Below, in pieces: positions 1-33,381 of a DNA stretch of 64,000 nt. A model generated the notes under the pieces. The model made no database searches. It was not told the origin of the DNA and saw nothing but the letters and a program-made list of their open reading frames with translations. The first letter of the stretch is position 1. Every line of letters begins with the position of its first letter. The stretch spans positions 36,456,001 through 36,520,000 of the forward strand of contig NC_091998.1 in the NCBI RefSeq assembly GCF_044704955.1, given 5' to 3'. This DNA comes from Pristiophorus japonicus (Eukaryota). Both the position numbers and the translations under genes were made by a program.

Positions 1-1625
1 ATTATGGTCACTCTTCCCCAAGGGGCCTCGCACAACGAGATTGCTAATTAATCCCCTCTCATTACACAACACCCAGTCTAAGATGGCCTCCCCCCTAGTT
101 GGTTCCTCGACATATTGGTCGAGAAAACCATCCCTTATGCACTCCAGGAAATCCTCCTCCACCGTATTGCTTCCAGTTTGGTTAGCCCAATCTATATGCA
201 TATTAAAGTCACCCATGATAACTGCTGCACCTTTATTGCATGCACCCCTAATTTCCTGTTTGATGCCCTCCCCAACATCACTACTACTGTTTGGAGGTCT
301 GTACACAACTCCCACTAACGTTTTTTGCCCTTTGGTGTTCTGCAGCTCTACCCATATAGATTCCATATCATCCAAACTAATGTCCTTCCTAACTATTGCA
401 TTAATCTCCTCTTTAAGCAGCAATGCTACCCCACCTCCTTTTCCTTTTATTCTATCCTTCCTGAATGTTGAATACCCTTGGATGTTGAGTTCCCAGCCCT
501 GATCATCCTGGCGCCACGTCTCTGTAATCCCAATCACATCATATCTGTTACCATCTATTTACACAGTTAATTCATCCACCTTATTACGGATACTCCTTGC
601 ATTAAGACACAAAGCCTTCAGGATTGTTTTTATAACACCCTTTGTCCTTTTAGAATTATGATGTAGTGTGGCCCTTTTTGTTTCTTGCCTTTGTTTACTC
701 GGCCTTCCACTATTGCTTTTTACCTTTCTACCATCTGTTTCTGACTCCATATTACTTCGCCCTGTCTCGCTGCATAGGTTCCCATCCCCCTGCCATATTC
801 GTTTAAACACTCCTGAAATGCATCAGCAAATGTTACCCCCAGGACATCAGTTCCAGTCCTGCCCAAGTGCAAACCGTCCCTTTTGTAAAGGTCCCACTTT
901 CCCCAGAACTGGTTCCAATGTCCCAGGAATTTGAATCCCTCCCTCTTGCACCACTGCTCAATCCACGTATTTATTCTAACTATCCTGCTCCCTCTACTCT
1001 GATTAGCACATGGCACTGGTAGCAATCTAGAGATTACTACCTTTGAGGTCCTACTTTTTAATTTAACTCCTAGCTCCCTAAATTCAGCTTGTAGGACCTC
1101 TTCCCGCTTCTTACCTATATCGTTGGTACCTATATGCACCACGACAACTGGCTGTTCACCCTCCCTCTCCAGAATGCTCTGCAGCCGCTCCGAGACATCC
1201 TTGACCCTTGCACCAGGGAGGCAACATACCATCTTGCGGCCGCAGAAACTCCTATCTATTCCCCTTAAAATAGAGTCCCCTATCACTATAGCTCTCCCAC
1301 TCTTTTTCCCGCCCTTCTGTGCAGCAGAGCCACCCATGGTGCCATGAACCTGGCTGCTGGCGCCTTTCCCTGGTAAGTCATCTCCCCCAACAGTATCCAA
1401 AACGGTGTATCTGTTTTGGAGGGAGATGACCACAGGGGACTCTTGCACTACCTTCCTGCTCTTGCCTTGTCTCTTGGTCACCCATTCATTATCTGTTCTA
1501 ACCCTTACCTGCGGTGTGACCAACTCACTAAATGTGCTATCCACAACATTCTCAGCATTGCACATGCTCCAGGGTGAGTCCATCCGCAGCTCCAGTGCCG
1601 TCATGCGGTCTGTTAGGAACTGCAT
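1..1625 (-). mobile_element. CR1-clade LINE, 5' portion: ORF1 (coiled coil + SGNH/GDSL esterase) and start of ORF2 APE endonuclease, running off the window edge
   Basis: ORF 720..1625 has IVIGDSILRG, VHIGTND and DGLHL esterase motifs; ORF 559..810 ends in LCLNARSIRNKVDEL (EN motif I); closely related to the 41768-46105 copy. Confidence 0.92.
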
Positions 1626-2455
1626 CCTTATTGAATACAGGAGTAGTGCCAGAGGATTGGAGGGTTGCCAATGTTATATCACAATTCAAGAAAGGGATAA
1701 ACCAGGAAACGACAGGCCAGTCAGCCTCACATCAGTGGTGGGGAAGTGACAAAATAAACTTTCATTTGGGAAGGCATGGATTAATCAAGGAGAGCCAGCA
1801 TGGATTTGTTAAAAGTAAATCGTGTCTGACGAACTTGATTGAATTCTCTGACGAGGTAACACAGAAGGTTGATCAAGGTAGTGCAGTAGATGCTGTAAAT
1901 ATGGACCCCCGGAAGGCACTCAACAAAGTGCCACACAGGAGAAGATGGAAGCCCATGGAATTTAGGGGAATGTAGTGGTATGGGTGCAGTAAAAGCATTA
2001 TAAAGTTTTCAGATGCTATGAAACTTGGCAAAGTAGGAGATCATAATGAGGATAGTTATTGGCTTCAGGCTGACATAGACAGGATGCTGAAATGGGCAGA
2101 AGTATGGCAAATGGATTTCAATGCAGAGAAGTGTGAAGTGATGCACTTTGGGAGGACGAATATGGAAAGACAGTATACTATAAATGGCAGGATTTCGAAA
2201 AATACAAATGAGCAGAGGGACCGTGGTATCGATATACACAAACACTTAAAGGTGATACGCCAAGTTGATAAGGTGGTCAAAAAATCATATGGGTTACTTG
2301 GTTTTATAAATAGAGGGATAGAATCTAAAAACAAAAAGATCATGCTAGAACTTTATGAATCACTGGTTAGGCATCAGATGGAATATTGTGGACAATTCTC
2401 GGCATCACATTTCAGGAAAGATGTAAAGGCATTAGAAAGGGTAGAGAGGAGGTTA
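1626..2455 (+). mobile_element. Degenerate CR1 ORF2 (RT) fragment
   Basis: VPEDWRVANV, SQHGFVKSKSCLTNL, WQMDFNAEKCEVMHFG motifs with frameshifts and deletions. Confidence 0.85.
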
Positions 2456-2686
2456 AGAACATAAGAATTAGGAGCAGCAGTAGGCCATAAAGCCCTTCGA
2501 GCCTGCTCCGCCATTCAATAAGATCATGGCTGATCTTCAACCTCAACTCCACTTTCCCGTCGAATCCCCATATCTCTTGATTCTCCTAGAGTCCAAAAAT
2601 CTATTTATCTCAACCTTGAATATACTCAATGATTCAGCATCCACATCCCTTTGAGGTAGAGAATTCTAAAGATTTACAACCCTCTG
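2456..2686 (-). mobile_element. CR1 3' end fragment
   Basis: AAGAACATAAGAA tail and GAGCCTGCTCCGCCATTCAATAAGATCATGG 3' UTR shared with other CR1 copies in the window. Confidence 0.8.
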
Positions 2687-3685
2687 TGTTATGTCCTGAA
2701 TAAAGTAATGTGATTGAGTACTGTAGACATAAGTGTGACAGTCTCTTTATTCTAACTCCAGAGTACTGGCACAGCAAGGGAGGCCCGCCCATGCGCAGCG
2801 CTCCCAAGGGATGCAGGGATCCCTTGGGACTCCAACAGATACGCCCTCCGGTGGCGGTAGAATGCTGGCTACATAGGGTTGCATATACATCATCACTCCC
2901 TCCCAAAAGTCAACGGTATACCCATTCACAGGGTGAGACGATCCCGGGTCCCCTGCTCCTCAGTCAACCGTCTCGGCACAAACGCAGGTGCAGGTGAGCC
3001 AGCCGGTTCCCCGCCGGGCTGCTGTGCAGCCGGCCCCGCTGGGCTACCGGGGACGACGAGCCCGGCCCTGCTGGGCTACCGGGGACGACGAGCCCAGCCC
3101 CGCGGCCAACCGTGACGTCGGCCGCCACCCGCGTATGCGTCAGAGGGCCAAAGCTGGCGGCGTCCTCCTCAGGCTGCCCGCGGCCATCCATGAACCGCAG
3201 CTCGGCCCGGTCCAAATGCTCCCTGCAAGTCAGTCCATCTGCGAGTCCGACCCGAAACACCCCACTCCCCTCCCCGGCTACGACAGCGCCAGCAAGCCAT
3301 CCGGGACCACGTCCACAGACGGCACAAACACAGGGTCACCGACCCCAAATACTACGCGACAAACCCGCGCGATCATGGCACACGCCCCGCCGATGACGCC
3401 CGCCCTCGACGCGATCACGGAGACCAGGGTGGACGAGAGAGAGTCCTGCCCCGAGCACCCCCTTCATGAGCAGCTCGGCTGGGGAACCCCGGCGAGCGAG
3501 CTGGGTCCGGTGCGGTAGCTGCGCAGGACCCGGGACAGGCGGGCCGGCAGGGAGACCCCCCGACACACGTCCCAAGCCCCGCTTAATGGTCCGGACCGCC
3601 CACTCTGCCCGGCCGCCGGATGCGGGCCCGAATGGAGCAGATGCGACGCGAACCGATCCCATCGCGGGCCATGAACTTCATAGAC
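2687..3685 (-). mobile_element. Gypsy (Mag-like) LTR retrotransposon remnant: 3' LTR (2687-2892), PPT and A-to-G hypermutated integrase C-terminal region
   Basis: TG...CA bounded ~206 bp LTR with minus-strand AATAAA; adjacent PPT (TCACTCCCTCCC on +); ORFs 3336..3662 and 2964..3260 align to the integrases at 28572 and 31971-32473. Confidence 0.85.
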
Positions 3686-3691
3686 TATCAC

Positions 3692-3945
3692 TAAAAGCAA
3701 GACTTGCATTTATATAGCGCCTTTCATGACTTCAGGACGCCTCAAAGATCTTCACAATGAAGTATTTTTGAAGTGTGGTCACTGATGTAATGTAGGAAAC
3801 ACAGCAGCCAATTTGCGCACAGCAAGCTCCCACAAACAGCAATATGATAATTGGTTTTTAGTGATGGTGGTTGAGGGATAAATATTGGCCAGGACACCGG
3901 GGATAAAACTTGGTTTAATATCTCATCTGAGTTATGGCACCTCAG
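3692..3945 (-). mobile_element. Deu-domain SINE (SacSINE1/AmnSINE1-like), 3' part
   Basis: GCATTTATATAGCGCCTTT tail and CAGCCAATTTGCGCACAGCAAG core, repeated at 7893, 25275 and 52600. Confidence 0.8.
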
Positions 3946-4600
3946 ACTGTGCAGCACTCCCTCAGTCCTGCCCCTCCGACAGTGCGGCGCTCCCTCAGTA
4001 CTGCCCCTCCGACAGTGCGGCACTCCCTCAGTACTGCCCCTCCGACAGTGCGGCGCTCCCTCAGTACTGCCCCTCCGACAGTGCGGCACTCCCTCAGTAC
4101 TGCCCCTCCGACAGTGCGGCACTCCCTCAGTACTGCCCCTCCGACAGTACGGCACTCCCTCAGTATTGCCCCTCCGACAGTGCGGCACTCCCTCAGTACT
4201 GCCCCTCCGACAGTGCGGCACTCCCTCAGTACTGCCCCTCCGACAGTGCGGGGCTCCCTCAGTACTGCCCCTCCGACAGTGCGGCACTCCCTCAGTACTG
4301 CCCCTCCGACAGTGCGGCGCTCCCTCAGTACTGCCCCTCCGACAGTGCGGCACTCCCTCAGTACTGCCCCTCCGAACTGCGGCACTCCCTCAGTACTGCC
4401 CCTCCGACAGTGCGGCGCTCCCTCAGTATTGCCCCTCCGACAGTGCGGCACTCCCTCAGTACTGCCCCTCCGACAGTGCGGCACTCCCTCAGTACTGCCC
4501 CTCCGACAGTGCGGCACTCCCTCAGTACTGCCCCTCCGACAGTGCGGCACTCCCTCAGTACTGCCCCTCCGACAGTGCGGCACTCCCTCAGTACTGCACT
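3940..4600. repeat. 33-bp minisatellite (~20 copies) expanded from the SINE body
   Basis: Unit CAGTACTGCCCCTCCGACAGTGCGGCACTCCCT; single-copy form visible in the SINE at ~25585-25625. Confidence 0.95.
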
Positions 4601-8254: not shown

Positions 8255-10400
8255 CACAAACGATTTGGACTCGGGAATCGGAAGTACAACTTCAAAATTT
8301 GCGCATGACACCAAATTTTGGGTAGGGGTGGGATAGTTAACACAGAGGAAGACTGCGACAAAATACAAGACATTAATAAACTTGCATGCAATTGGCCAGT
8401 GAGCTTCAGTATCTATCAGTGCGAGGTAATACATGTTGGTTGGAAGAATAAGGAGACCACAAACGCCTTGGAAAATAAATGTGGCAACAGAGCAGAGGAA
8501 CAGGACTCCGGGGCACAGATACACACATCACTAGAAGTAACAACGCAGGTTAACAAGGCCATAAAAAGCAAACACAGCACTGGGTCATTTACAGAATTGA
8601 AAAACAGAGAAGTTATGTTAAACTTGTACAAAACCTTAGTTAGACCACACTTGGAGTACTGTGAACAGTTCTGGTCTCCATGTTATAAAAAGGATACAGA
8701 GGCACTGGAGAAACATAGAAAGAGAAAATAGGTGCAGGAGTAGGCCATTCGGCCCTTCGAGCCTGCACCGCCACTCAATAAGATCATGGCTGATCATTCC
8801 TTCAGTACCCCTTTCCTGCTTTCTCTCCATACCCCTTGATCCCCTTAACCGTAAGGGCCATATCTAACTCCCTCTTGAATATATCCAATGAACTGGCATC
8901 AACAACTCTCTGCGGCAGGGAATTCCACAGGTCAACAACTCTCTGAGTGAAAAAGTTTCTCCTCATCTCAGTCCTAAATGGCCTACCCCTTATCCAAAGA
9001 CTATGTTCCCTGGTTCTGGACTTCCCCAACATCGAGAACATTCTTCCCGTATCAAACCTGTCCAGTCCCGTCAGAATCTTAAATGTTTCTATGAGATCCT
9101 CTCTCATCCTTCTAAACCCCAGTGAATAAAGGCCCAGTTGATCCAGTCTCGCCTCATATGACAGCCCAGCCATCCCTGGAATCAGTCTGGTGAACCTTCG
9201 CTGCACTCCCTCAATAGCAAGAACGTCCTTCCTCAGATTAGGAGACCAAAACTGAACACAATATTCCAGGTGAGGCTTCACTAAGGCCCTGTACAACTGC
9301 AGTAAGACCTCCCTGTTCCTATATTCAAATCCCCTAGCTATGAAGGCCAACATACCATTTGCCTTCTTTACCGCTTGCTGTACCTGCGTTCCCACTTTCA
9401 GTGACTGATGAACCATGACACCCAGGTCTCGTTGCACTCCCCCTCTTTTCTAGACTGCTGCCATTCAGATAATATTCTGCCTTTGCGTTCCCGCCCCCAA
9501 AATGGACAACCCCACATCCATCCACACCATACTGCATCAGCCATGCACCTGCCCACCCACTCAATCTGTCCAAGTCACCCTGCAGCCTCCCAGCGTCCTC
9601 CCCACAGCTCACACCACCACCCAGTCCAGTGTCATCCGCAAACCTGGAGACACTACACTCCATTCCCTCATCCAAATCGTCAATGTACATTGCAAAGAGC
9701 TGGGGTCCCAGCACTGAGCCCCGTGGCACCCTACCAGCAACTGCCCGCCACTCTGAAAAGGACCCGTCCATCCCTACTCTCTGCCCCTGCCCGCCAACCA
9801 GCCCACCACTCACGCCAGAACACCACCCCCAATACCATGCGCCCCGATCTCGCTCACCAATCTCCTGTGTGGGACCCCACCAAAAGTCCTCCGAAAGTCC
9901 AAATACACCACATCCACTGGTCCTCCCCCGTCCACCCCACCAGCCACATCCCCAAAAAATTCCAGAAGATTCGTCAAGAAGGTGCAACAATAGTTACTAG
10001 GATGATAGCAGAACTGAGGTTTATACCCATTAGGAAAGATTGAACAGCCTGGGGCCCTTTTCTCGGGAAAGGGGAAGACTGAGGGGTGAGCCGATAGAGG
10101 TCTTCAAGATGATGAAAGGGTAGATGTCGAGAAAATGTTTCCACTTGTGGGGGAGTCCAAAACTAGAGCTCATCCACATATGTCAGTAATAAATCCAATG
10201 GGGAATTCAGGAGAAACTTCTTCACCCATGAGAGCGGTGAGAATGTGGAACTCACTGCCACAGGAAGGGGTTGAGGTGAGTAGCACAGATACATTTAAGG
10301 GGAAGCTGGATAAACTTACGAGGGGGAAAAGGAGGAGCTTGTGGAGCATAAACACCGGCACGGACCAATCGGGCCGAATGGCCTGTTTCTGTGCTGTACA
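8255..10400 (+). mobile_element. Old CR1 3' fragment split by a younger CR1 insertion (halves 8255-8712 and 9977-10400)
   Basis: GGCACTGGAGAA and AGAAGGTGCAA rejoin as ALEKVQ; AGAA duplicated at both junctions. Confidence 0.8.
8713..9976 (-). mobile_element. 5'-truncated CR1 insertion; 3' part normal, 5' ~490 bp A-to-G hypermutated
   Basis: ORF 8802..9437 nearly identical to the ORF2 C-terminus of other copies; ORF 9334..9990 is RT core with Gly/Arg/Ala/Asp substitutions. Confidence 0.92.
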
Positions 10401-26699: not shown

Positions 26700-29095
26700 A
26701 ACTATAATGCATGTACATAAGGTCTGCCCACCAAAAGGGGGCACTACTGTCAGAGGTCCTGGGTCATAGGTACACTCATGCTGGGCCCAGTATATAACCC
26801 GAACTTCACCTTTGTATCTTCACTTCTGGAAGCCAATAAAAATTGACCAGGTTACAACTAGTCACTGGCTCACAGTACGGAGTCCATTGTATCATTTCAT
26901 ACACCATAACTGTCGACGAGGCAAATATGAACCCACGCAAAAGTATAGCGAGCACAGCACGATCGAATAGTGTTGGAATTCTCGAGAGATTCAATGAGCG
27001 AGAGGATTGGGGAGATTTTACGGATCGTCTTGAGCAGTATTTCGTGGCAAATGACCTAAACAAAGACAAGGATGCAGAGAAGCGCAGGGCAGTTCTTCTC
27101 ACCGTCTATGGCCCCACGACCTATGTACTCATCAAGAATCTGTTCTCACCCACTATTCCTACAGAAAAGGATTACAAAGAACTGTGTGCTCTAGTTCGGC
27201 AACAGCTTAAACCCACAGAAGAAATCCTCATATCCAGATATCGTTTCTATACGCATGTTCGTCCAGAAGGCCAGGACGTAGCGGCATTTATTGCTGACCT
27301 GCGACATCTTGCAGGGCCTTGCAAATTTGGGCCTGCATTGGAAAACATGCTGTGTGACTTTTTCATGATCGGGGTCAACCACGAGGCGATCTTAGGTAGA
27401 CGCCGGACCACAGCAAGGTCATCACCATCGCCCAGGCTTGCATGTCCATAAAGAAAAGCACGAAGCAGGTATCGCGACAAAACAGGAACTCCACGGCAAG
27501 TACTGTGCACAAAATTGTATCGACGGCTGGCAGAGCTACACATGGCAGGGCCTACTCGACTGCATCAACAAGACCGGGAGCCGCTCAAAGTTCGCCATCG
27601 AGGGCCTACTCGACTGCGTATGCGAGAACGGGAGCCGCTCAAAGCCTGCCATCGAGCGCAAATCCGAGCTCAACGTGTTGGCGTTGTGGGGGCAATCACC
27701 AACCCCATCAGTGGCGCTTCAGGCAGTGGTATGCAGAGGGTGTGTGAGGACGGGGCACCTTTAGTGGACGTGTCCACAGCGGAGCAAGCGAGCTGCGACA
27801 CACCATGTGGATTTGGCGATGCAGCCCGAGGCATTTGAGAGCTCCGAGGAGGAAGTGTATAGTGTACATGCGTTCCTAACAAAAAGCCAACCGATAATGA
27901 TGGAGGTAAAATTAAATGGCATGCCAGTATCCATGGAATTAGACACGGATGTGAGTCAATCGATAATGAGCCAGAGGACTTTCGAAAAGCTGTGGGAGAC
28001 CAAGGCAGAGAGACCCAAGCTGAGCCTGATAAATGCGAAGTTGTGGTACCTACACCAAAGAGCTCATACCAGTGATCGGAAGTGCAGCAGTAAGAGTGTC
28101 GTACGAGGGAGTGGTTCATGATCTACCGTTATGGATTATCCCGGGCAACGGCCCATCGTTATTTGGCAGGAGTTGGCTCAAGAAAATAAAATGGAAATGG
28201 TACGATATCAAAGCTTTGTCATCAGCGGATGATGATTTGTGTGCTCAAGTGCTGAGCAAATTTCCCTCACTGTTTGAACCGGGAATTGGCAGCTTCAAGG
28301 GAGCCAAGGTGCAGATTCACCTAGGCCCAGACGCAAGGCCCATCCATCACAAACCAGGGCGGTCCCGCACATGATGAGAGAAAAGGTTGAGTTCGAATTG
28401 GACAGGCTACAATGTGAGGGGGTCATCTCACCGGTCAAATTTAATGAACGAGCCAGTCCCATTGTTCCGGTCTTAAAGAGCGACGGCACGGTCAGGATTT
28501 GTGGAGACTACAAGGTCATGATCAACTGAGTTTCAAAACAAGATCAGTACCCGCATCAGTGCAGCACTAGCATGCAGTTAAGCAATGCCCCAAAGGAAGC
28601 TCCGCTCAGTCTGTGGTCATGGCCATCCAAACCGTGGTCTAGAATCCACATCGACTTTGCGGGCCCCTTCCTCGGTAAAATGTTTTTTGTGGTGATGGAT
28701 GCAGACACCAAATGGATAGAATGTGTGATCATGTCATCCAGCACTTCCACTGCCACCATTGAGAACCTGAGAGCCATGTTTGCCACACATGGTCTGCCAG
28801 ACATCATTGTCAGCAACAACGGACCATGTTTCACGAACCTGAAGTTTCAAGAGTTCATGAAACGCAACGGCATAAAACACGTGAGGTCAGCCCCGTTCAA
28901 AGTCACGCCCAATGGTCAAACAGAGCGGGCAGTTCAAACTATCAAGTTTGAAACACGTAACTCACGGTTCCTTGCAGACACACCTGTCACGCATACTGTT
29001 CAGATACAGGACCACACATGCACACCAGGGTTTCACCTGCGGAACTATTGATGAAGAGAGGCCTCAAAACCAGGCTCTCTCTAGTCCATCCTGAC
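26700..29095 (+). mobile_element. Gypsy (Mag-like) element: 5' LTR (~26700-26909), PBS, gag, protease, RT start, deletion to integrase core; 3' end lost
   Basis: PBS-like TGTCGACGAG at 26911; gag DRLEQYFVANDL; MELDT protease; PWSRIHIDFAGP integrase. Confidence 0.88.
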
Positions 29096-31487: not shown

Positions 31488-33381
31488 TGTAAAGTCCTTA
31501 CTCTACAGCATGAAACCACACGAGGCACATTCTGGGGACAAGGTTACTCTGTGGCCTTAACTCTTTATTCACTCCAAAGTCAATGACCCTGCGTGGGACC
31601 TCCCTTTTTATACCTGTGTGATCAGGTAAGGAGTGTCTCCCACAAGTTCACCCCTTGTGGTCAAGGTGTGCATCAAGGTTGAGTGTATACAGTAATACAG
31701 TGGTGTTACATTGTAGTTACATACATGACATCACCTTCCCCGCCCCCACCTCCAAAGTCTTACTGGGATCATAGGTTTAGTCTTTCAGGTGGTCTACGCT
31801 CCCTCGTGGAGCACCGCAGTTGGGGCTCTGGTTGTTGGACACTGACGTGAGTGTCTGTCACCTGTGGTGATTCCGGCCTGTCCGGGCTGACCGCAGGGAC
31901 TGTGCATTCCTCTGATTGCTCTTGTTGCTCGTTCACTGGCGGTGTTGTGAGCTCCACCTCATGGTCTTCTTCAGGTTCCTCTGTGTCGGTGCTGAACCTT
32001 TTTTTTTACTTGGTCCAGACACTTATGGCATATCTGACCATTGTTGAGTTTTACCACGATGATCCTATTCCTCTCTTTGCCAATTACAGTGCCCTCAAGC
32101 CATGTGGGCCCCATGGTGTGATTGAGGATGAATACAGGATCATTTATTTCTATACATCTCCCCCTCGAATTACGGTCATGGTACTCGTTTTGTGACTTGC
32201 GCTTGCCCTCAACTATGTCGGTCAGGACTGGGTGAATGAGGGACAACCGAGTTTTGATTGTCGTTTCATTAGTAGCTCGGCGGGCGGGACCCCCGTGAAC
32301 GAGTGCGGTCGGGATCTATAGGCCAGCAGGAGGTGCGATAGGCGGCATTGTAGGGAGGGTCCTTGAATCCTGAGCATACCGTGCTTTATGATTTGGACCA
32401 CATGTTCCGCCTGGCCATTGGAGGCCGGCTTGAACGGCGCAGTCCTGACATGGTTGATGCCATTGCCCGACATAAACTCTCAGAATTCGTAGCTTGTGAA
32501 ACATGGTCCGTTATCACTAACCAGGATGTCCGGCAAGCCATGGGTTGCAAAAATCGCACGTAGGCTTTCCACAGTGGTGGATGATGTGCATGAATTCAGA
32601 ATGATGCACTCGATCCATTTTGAGTATGCAGCTATCACAATAAGGAACATCTTAACCATGAACGGGCCCGCATAGTCAACATGAATGTGTGACCATGGCC
32701 TGGTGGGCCAGGGCCACAGGCCCTGGGGGCATTACCCAGCTGGGCACACGTCGTGTACCTGCGAACAGAGTGTTCCAGGTCTGAACCAATTCCAGCCCAC
32801 CAAACGTGTGACCGGGCAATGGCCTTCATCAGCACAATGCCTGGGTGCTCGCTGTGGAGTTCCCTGATGAATGCCTCCCTGCCCTTCTGGGGCATAACTA
32901 CCCGGCTGCTCCATAGTAGACAGTCGGATTAGATGGAGAGCTCATCCATCCGTCTGTGGAACGGTCTGACCTCCTCAGGGCATGGTCCGTGTGCGGGCGC
33001 CCAATCCCCAGTCAGGATACATTTCTTAATCAGGAATAGGAGGGGATCTCTGTTTGTCCAGATTTTGATCTGGCGGGCTGTGATGGGGGAGCCTGTGCTG
33101 TCAAAGGCATCGACAGTCATGACCATCTCGGCGCTTTGCTCCGCTGCCCCCTCAGTGGTGGCCAGCGGAAGCCTGCTGAGCGCATCAGCACAATTTTCAG
33201 TGCCGGGCCGGTGCCGGATGGAGTAGTCATAAGCAGCCAGCGTGAGAGCCCATCGCTGTATGCGAGCTGATGCGTTGGCATTGACAGCCTTGCTGTCTGA
33301 CAACAGGGATGTTAATGGCTTGTGGTCCGTCTCTAATTCAAACTTCCTACCAAAGAGATACTGATGCATTTTTTTTACACC

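Follow-up and report, generated by a model that had tools for sequence, protein, structure and literature searches.

5′ transduction, in which upstream sequence is carried along, is known from L1 and SVA, and A>G clusters of the ADAR1 type exist in avian retroviruses. Among the closest described systems, editing of inverted Alu repeats in pre-mRNA resembles the present locus in the near inverted repeat on one transcript, in its one-strand A>G clusters, in the avoidance of sites with a 5′-G and in favouring A:C sites (PMC3091650). That record is in RNA, whereas here the edited molecule stands in chromosomal DNA, concerns a Gypsy pair with a predicted 8.7-kb loop and has 59% of its A's changed. 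ADAR1-type clusters in proviruses (BLV 3′ LTR, HTLV-2/STLV-3; PMC8025556) share the reading of inosine as G by a reverse transcriptase and its fixation in DNA, but they are short (~70 bp in BLV), somatic and made by a viral enzyme, while the tract described here measures 900 bp, is in the germ line and would be the work of an unrelated LINE that copied host intron RNA. APOBEC G>A changes in endogenous LTR elements likewise show a strand-biased copy with an unedited parent in the same genome, and cluster types other than APOBEC G>A are there called very rare (PMC4866542, PMC2873906). Stringent LINEs recognise a 3′ tail, begin at the tail repeat and move other RNAs with that tail (PMC1636434, PMC3747384). 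LINE 5′ transduction and such tail-based trans-mobilisation share with the present copy the upstream passenger, the priming at a tail repeat and the 5′ truncation. Unlike in these systems, the carrier CR1 could no longer code, the passenger is hyperedited, and what was copied was likely intron RNA that had not been spliced and reached kilobases past the tail. The accessible text of a review on ADAR and retrotransposons (PMC5974252) describes no such case, and full-text literature searches, covering main articles and few subscription journals, brought up no paper on an intron retrocopy hyperedited by ADAR, nor a germ-line one whose donor and partner had been identified, which is no proof of absence. 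Each ingredient is known.

The window analysed is a stretch of 64,000 nucleotides from contig C22 of Pristiophorus japonicus. A genome search with the LTR and internal part of the Gypsy element near its start returned many family copies, one of which was clearly closer, that at C4:290.56 Mb (hereafter the donor), and the junction between LTR and flank is present at just two sites in the genome, the donor and the window. From −2277 to 3679 the window copy forms one collinear block of 5.96 kb, 93.0% identical to the donor over 5,973 columns. Read from 3679, within the integrase, it passes through one LTR and two LINE fragments into a near full-length CR1 and ends in the microsatellite tail of this CR1 at C22:36453723, which lies 2,277 bases beyond the left edge of the window. 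Its features in the window are:

1–1621, minus strand: 5′ part of the near full-length CR1 LINE, collinear with donor C4:290557237–290561110
1621–2453, plus strand: old LINE fragment in opposite orientation, inherited from and collinear with the donor
2454–2686, minus strand: 3′ end of an older CR1, the Gypsy insertion site at the donor; unedited
2687–2892, minus strand: single (3′) Gypsy LTR; outer 83 bp unedited, inner 123 bp edited
2770–3679, minus strand: A>G tract, 150/254 A
2893–3679, minus strand: C-terminal half of the Gypsy integrase and downstream region; hyperedited, truncated at 3679
3030–3093, no strand assigned: 32-bp tandem duplication without counterpart in the donor; edits common to both units
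3680–3684, no strand assigned: probable target-site duplication of 5 bases (6 if base 3679 is counted), found again at the tail junction

Comparison of 2770–3679 with the donor showed 150 of 254 A's on the sense strand changed to G and 4 of 171 T's changed to C (Fisher p 3e-39). The remaining differences were G>A (7), C>T (6) and transversions (4), A>G amounting to 150 of all 171 differences and transversions to 2 of the 152 changed A's. Within the internal part alone (2893–3679), A>G was found at 139/224 and T>C at 3/140, together with 7 G>A, 6 C>T and 3 transversions. A sequence-only reading had recognised a Gypsy integrase with A>G hypermutation on its sense strand, and both claims were borne out; all four peptides quoted there are found in the stretch. 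It had also assigned normal T content to the adjacent LTR, which is correct for the outer 83 bp (A>G 0/29) and incorrect for the inner 123 bp (2770–2892), where A>G reaches 11/30 and plus-strand T drops from 0.244 to 0.163, the change point of editing lying at 2770, inside the LTR. The motif said to be intact in two other Gypsy copies of the window is so near 32400 and reads APFKVTPNGQTE near 28890. These copies (28791–29094, plus strand; 31964–32466, minus strand) are 66–69% identical to the donor and too distant as parents, and since the donor already has APFRPASNGQAEWAVQTIK, not every R/W difference from them is an edit.

Polarisation, with the commonest letter over 39 family alignments as reference, showed 137 of the 150 A>G changes to be derived in the window copy; 12 of the remaining 13 were donor-private A's reading G again and one was of another kind. 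Each of the 39 other family copies examined had at most 13 A>G at about 240 A columns. None of them shares the Gly/Arg-rich sequence of the window copy, and the spectrum, far from being strand-symmetric AT>GC with transversions, is one-stranded and almost free of these; either outcome had been named beforehand as evidence against hyperediting. The edited share depended on the 5′ neighbour (A 53/72, C 64/102, U 15/28, G 18/50), with 5′-G sites avoided (18/50 vs. 132/202 for other neighbours, chi2 p 4e-4; 17/48 once polarised). Upstream G is the least preferred 5′ neighbour of ADAR (PMC3091650). By 3′ neighbour the shares were 40/62 for G, 51/73 for A and 25/53 for U. The ADAR preferences for 5′-U and 3′-G were weak in the tract, as 5′-U (54%) fell below 5′-A (74%) and 3′-G reached 65% vs. 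70% for 3′-A. We regard ADAR acting on RNA as the almost certain cause of the hyperediting. An assembly artefact was ruled out by a contig of 863 nt, identical to 2856–3718 without any difference, from a sequencing run (X1) that may be the assembly's own sample.

Changes after insertion were also visible. Donor CA reads CG 60 times, TG 4 times, CA 37 times and TA once in the window copy, and the 4 TG beside 60 CG compare with C>T at 1/130 elsewhere; new CpGs created by editing would thus have decayed in part after insertion. The 32-bp duplication at 3030–3093 likely arose during or after copying, because both units carry the same edits.

The donor Gypsy has both LTRs with a 5-bp target-site duplication (TSD) on either side, and it interrupted an older CR1 that resumes beyond the other LTR. 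Its frame matches the Pfam profiles RT_RNaseH, Integrase_H2C2 and rve, and the order of RNase H and then integrase, the TG..CA LTRs and the short TSD are features of Ty3/Gypsy elements. As the donor keeps two LTRs and its own 5-bp TSD, the C4 locus is the original insertion and the window has the copy. The donor LTRs are only 80% identical to each other, with several indels, despite the one flanking TSD; recombination or conversion between subfamilies is a possible cause.

A Pfam scan of the donor region, covering 100 of 340 open frames in non-repeat parts and 7 element frames, located the donor within a gene. Exons matching CATSPERB_head flank it on the minus strand, at profile positions 41–109 (E 7e-5, under the cut-off) and 109–177 (E 3e-19), the second being the sole genome match. 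With AG/GT sites and compatible phase, they delimit an intron of 58,657 bp that contains both the donor and an inverted Gypsy copy. Five matches to CATSPERB_C follow downstream, in order and on the same strand; the CATSPERB_2nd profile had no match. The gene is listed as:

C4:290290787–290577514, minus strand: CATSPERB, spanning at least 287 kb

In the 220 kb around the donor most Gypsy-family pieces run antisense to CATSPERB, and the donor is among the few in sense orientation. In the mouse CatSper-beta is sperm-specific, and cartilaginous fishes have CatSper genes (PMC2572835); CATSPERB would be expressed in the germ cells of this animal.

The window copy lacks the features of an insertion by Gypsy integrase, having one LTR, donor flank included in the copy and a truncation within the integrase. 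Those of a CR1 retrocopy are present: a 3′ end at the tail repeat, 5′ truncation and a new chromosomal site. The duplicated word at 3680–3684 overlaps the tail repeat at the tail junction, and its chance at a blind position is 0.34%. No contig joining both flanks, such as an empty site would give, was found in runs X1, X5, X8, X12 and X14, other organisms giving only short unspecific pieces, and the left flank of the copy had no match in the 220 kb around the donor. Taken together, the window copy is very probably a target-primed LINE retrocopy with a 2-kb 5′ passenger. The donor CR1 has frames that match Exo_endo_phos_2 and RVT_1; besides these endonuclease and reverse transcriptase (RT) profiles, its tail and motif features lead us to take it for a CR1. 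Its ORF1, for which no Pfam profile match was obtained, is presumably esterase-like on account of its motif features. Two stops in ORF2 are common to donor and copy, at positions where 19/22 and 11/13 relatives have sense codons. Because of these shared stops, the ORF2 enzyme likely came from another CR1, i.e., by mobilisation in trans. It would have started at a tail internal to a longer RNA. Transduction in cis by an active LINE does not describe the case, the source ORF2 having already been stopped; the copy resembles a 5′ transduction made in trans.

These observations also bear on the proposal, in the sequence-only reading, of an independent hyperediting event in an element with a different replication route. 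The event is indeed separate from that in an edited CR1 at 8709–9978, which has its own junctions. A different route was not confirmed, since the Gypsy piece has one LTR and a junction inherited from the donor, is 5′-truncated and is attached to a CR1-tailed block; most likely the same LINE route brought both of the window's edited elements into the genome.

In the rest of the block editing was slight or lacking. The CR1 part was almost unedited relative to the donor (A>G 40/1231, T>C 12/895), the old LINE fragment at 1621–2453 showed A>G at 12/203 and T>C at 5/291 on the sense strand of the copy, and the older CR1 piece at 2454–2686 had one difference in 233 columns. The scenario that we propose, and which as a whole we consider probable, is that CATSPERB intron RNA folded on its nearest inverted Gypsy copy, was edited by ADAR and was retrocopied by CR1. 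The minus-strand pre-mRNA would have folded back so that the Gypsy copies paired as a stem, leaving the CR1 in a loop of 8.7 kb. ADAR would have hyperedited the Gypsy in the stem, and the CR1 would have stayed clean in the single-stranded loop. CR1 ORF2 made elsewhere would have bound the intact CR1 3′ end within this longer RNA and primed at the tail repeat on a nicked C22 target. It would then have copied 5 kb of single-stranded RNA and about 900 nt of the stem, reading inosine as G, before it stopped. Expression of CATSPERB in germ cells would have made the copy heritable, RNA editing thus having turned into a heritable change of germ-line DNA.

The source RNA was likely CATSPERB pre-mRNA rather than LTR read-through. 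An RNA started in the 5′ LTR of the donor Gypsy and continuing through the 3′ LTR and the CR1, with the same editing and CR1 copying, is improbable. This LTR does lie 5 kb upstream on the same strand, and the sequence cannot name the promoter. However, such an RNA must run past both the 3′ LTR, which carries AATAAA, and the end of the CR1, and then continue for at least 4.6 kb to the inverted copy, a span that intron RNA would cover by default, and the donor Gypsy is both CR1-interrupted and decayed.

The inverted Gypsy copy, 81% identical, starts 3.7 kb past the CR1 tail in the same intron. A's facing A, G or a gap in it were edited at 2/14 sites vs. 148/238 for those paired or in A:C (one-sided p 5e-4), the strongest sparing of mismatched A's among 40 copies; the test rests on 14 sites, and p is about 0.02 after correction for 45 copies. 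In a context-corrected model, this copy had a 2dLL of 12.3, the best of 45, followed by 5.6, and in the 19 other copies with at least 8 such mismatched sites 36–91% of them were edited. A:C sites were edited at 16/21, and A's beyond the reach of the inverted copy at 0/16. Between its alignment edge and the first edit lie 13 unedited A's, where pairing is poor. In human Alu data, editing at A:A (5.1%) and A:G (3.7%) is not below the helix average of 4.4% (PMC3091650). About six inverted copies of the tract lie within 220 kb, and a copy as near as this one is not rare. An inverted CR1, 86% identical, is present upstream in the same RNA and matches the CR1 part, which is nevertheless not hyperedited. 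RNAduplex gave 130/238 edited among paired and 20/63 among unpaired A's for the nearest inverted copy, vs. 127/239 and 23/56, 116/239 and 32/63, and 135/272 and 15/30 for the other three; this result points in the same direction, yet it was kept out of the main support because the program forces pairing past true homology. On the pattern of spared sites, the nearest inverted copy was probably the editing partner.

Slightly more improbable still than the start in the LTR is a different double-stranded RNA partner, namely another antisense Gypsy RNA from a farther inverted copy in the gene or supplied in trans. Three such inverted copies, 83–90% identical, lie at about −43 kb, −77 kb and +94 kb, and the edge of the first lies 12 nt from the first edit, with A's outside it edited at 0/27. 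Mismatched sites are, however, not spared for these copies (4/10, 4/8 and 4/5 edited, respectively), the −43 kb copy lies past the next exon, and a fully matching antisense RNA from the locus would also have left the CR1 exposed, which is clean.

An origin at the DNA level is very unlikely, that is, a segmental duplication or retrocopy later hit at C22 by GC-biased conversion, an A:T mutator polymerase or R-loop deamination. A local DNA process could explain why the window has two edited tracts on one strand, 6 kb from each other, but the change affects a single strand (T>C 4/171), transversions make up 2 of the 152 changed A's, and there is no WA restriction (5′-C 63%). The breakpoint lies exactly at the CR1 tail, C22 offers no close inverted Gypsy copy within 272 kb (best 66–72%), and the spared sites follow the copy adjoining the donor on C4. 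GC-biased conversion and an A:T mutator polymerase were rejected on the one-stranded, near transversion-free spectrum. Least credible of all is a Gypsy genomic RNA hyperedited, packaged and integrated by its own integrase with later loss of the 5′ part: ADAR-type A>G clusters are on record in proviral LTRs (PMC8025556), but the proposal fails because the flank is shared with C4 and descent of C4 from C22 is excluded by the two LTRs and TSD at C4, while 5 kb of donor flank past the LTR was copied along, the junction is the donor's own insertion site, the edits reach the truncation point and 0/39 other Gypsy copies are hyperedited here.

For the CR1 part, which in the proposed fold would lie in the loop of the CATSPERB intron RNA, changes derived in the window and polarised on the family comprised 11 A>G, 9 G>A, 7 C>T and 2 T>C, and the copy's own lineage accumulated 49 substitutions over the 3.9-kb CR1. 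The excess of A>G (40) over T>C (12) against the donor was without 5′-G avoidance. Between −2277 and 1620, 28 sites have a donor-private A where the window has the family G, compared with 7 mirror C/T sites. This asymmetry may stem from weak editing where A faces C, or from a donor biased towards G>A; A>G in the CR1 part occurred at 28/58 A:C sites vs. 38/117 (p 0.048), 5′-G avoidance again being absent.

The sequence-only reading had described the Gypsy tract as "also" hypermutated, and the other element meant was probably the 5′-truncated CR1 at 8709–9978 (minus strand). It shows A>G at 57/120 vs. T>C at 4/120 over 9500–9978, while its 3′ 770 bases are nearly clean; the copy ends within the edited tract and has its junctions in another LINE. 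Of its seven best relatives, four were A>G-rich with mostly private edits, in a search that favoured edited copies and so gives no frequency:

C3:274.38 Mb: A>G-rich CR1 relative, A>G 177/773, T>C 23
C5:77.28 Mb: A>G-rich CR1 relative, A>G 87/320, T>C 13
C1:440.62 Mb: A>G-rich CR1 relative, A>G 97/360, T>C 13
C3:18.20 Mb: A>G-rich CR1 relative, A>G 50/451, T>C 7

In three of the four, the tract begins about 800 bases from the tail. A short amplified family of about 870 bp (e.g., C22:36433391) consists of an internally deleted CR1 in which 55–65% of the A's read G. It numbers at least 40 copies, 40/40 scored places matching at 84–95%. As the same G sites recur from contig to contig (e.g., 43 shared and 1 private in 63 columns), the family is best read as amplified from one hyperedited CR1-derived founder.

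A tract detector that recovered both tracts of the window found no comparable tract in 60 blindly sampled pieces of 10 kb (244,696 scorable columns), its three weak flags being one C>T and two A>G in an unassigned high-copy repeat. Near the donor there were none in 115,970 columns (two weak G>A flags), and the C22 flanks contained one tract in 128,407 columns besides five weak flags in high-copy repeats. The notion that hyperedited copies abound everywhere was rejected, as the blind 600-kb sample was free of them, and that of C22 as a hot spot where three events took place independently was weakened, as the third tract belongs to the amplified family. The class of hyperedited copies recurs but is sparse, and the two tracts in one window may reflect chance together with selection by the scan.

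We consider the balance even on a broader proposition, namely that CR1 RT in this lineage routinely captures germ-cell pre-mRNA at internal CR1 tails. ADAR would then be a mutagen of germ-line DNA, single edited RNAs would have been fossilised with their folding legible, and at least one hyperedited CR1 derivative would have founded an amplified family. If this is true, such copies constitute a record, readable from the genome only, of transcription in ancient germ lines, of RNA structure and of the specificity of ADAR. RNA editing normally vanishes with the RNA, but here donor, host gene, likely partner and carrier could be read from the assembly. Three questions could be tested with genomes alone: do ADAR edits come to be inherited in the germ line of vertebrates, do stringent LINEs start at internal tails and copy nuclear RNA before it is spliced, and is LINE 5′ truncation brought about by edited duplexes (both edited copies in the window end inside their tract)? 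For repeat dating it matters that a divergent repeat copy, poor in A and rich in CpG, need not be old and may instead be young and edited. Elsewhere in the window, a 33-bp tandem array following a SINE-like repeat occurs in related copies at 3937–4597 and 52926–53486.
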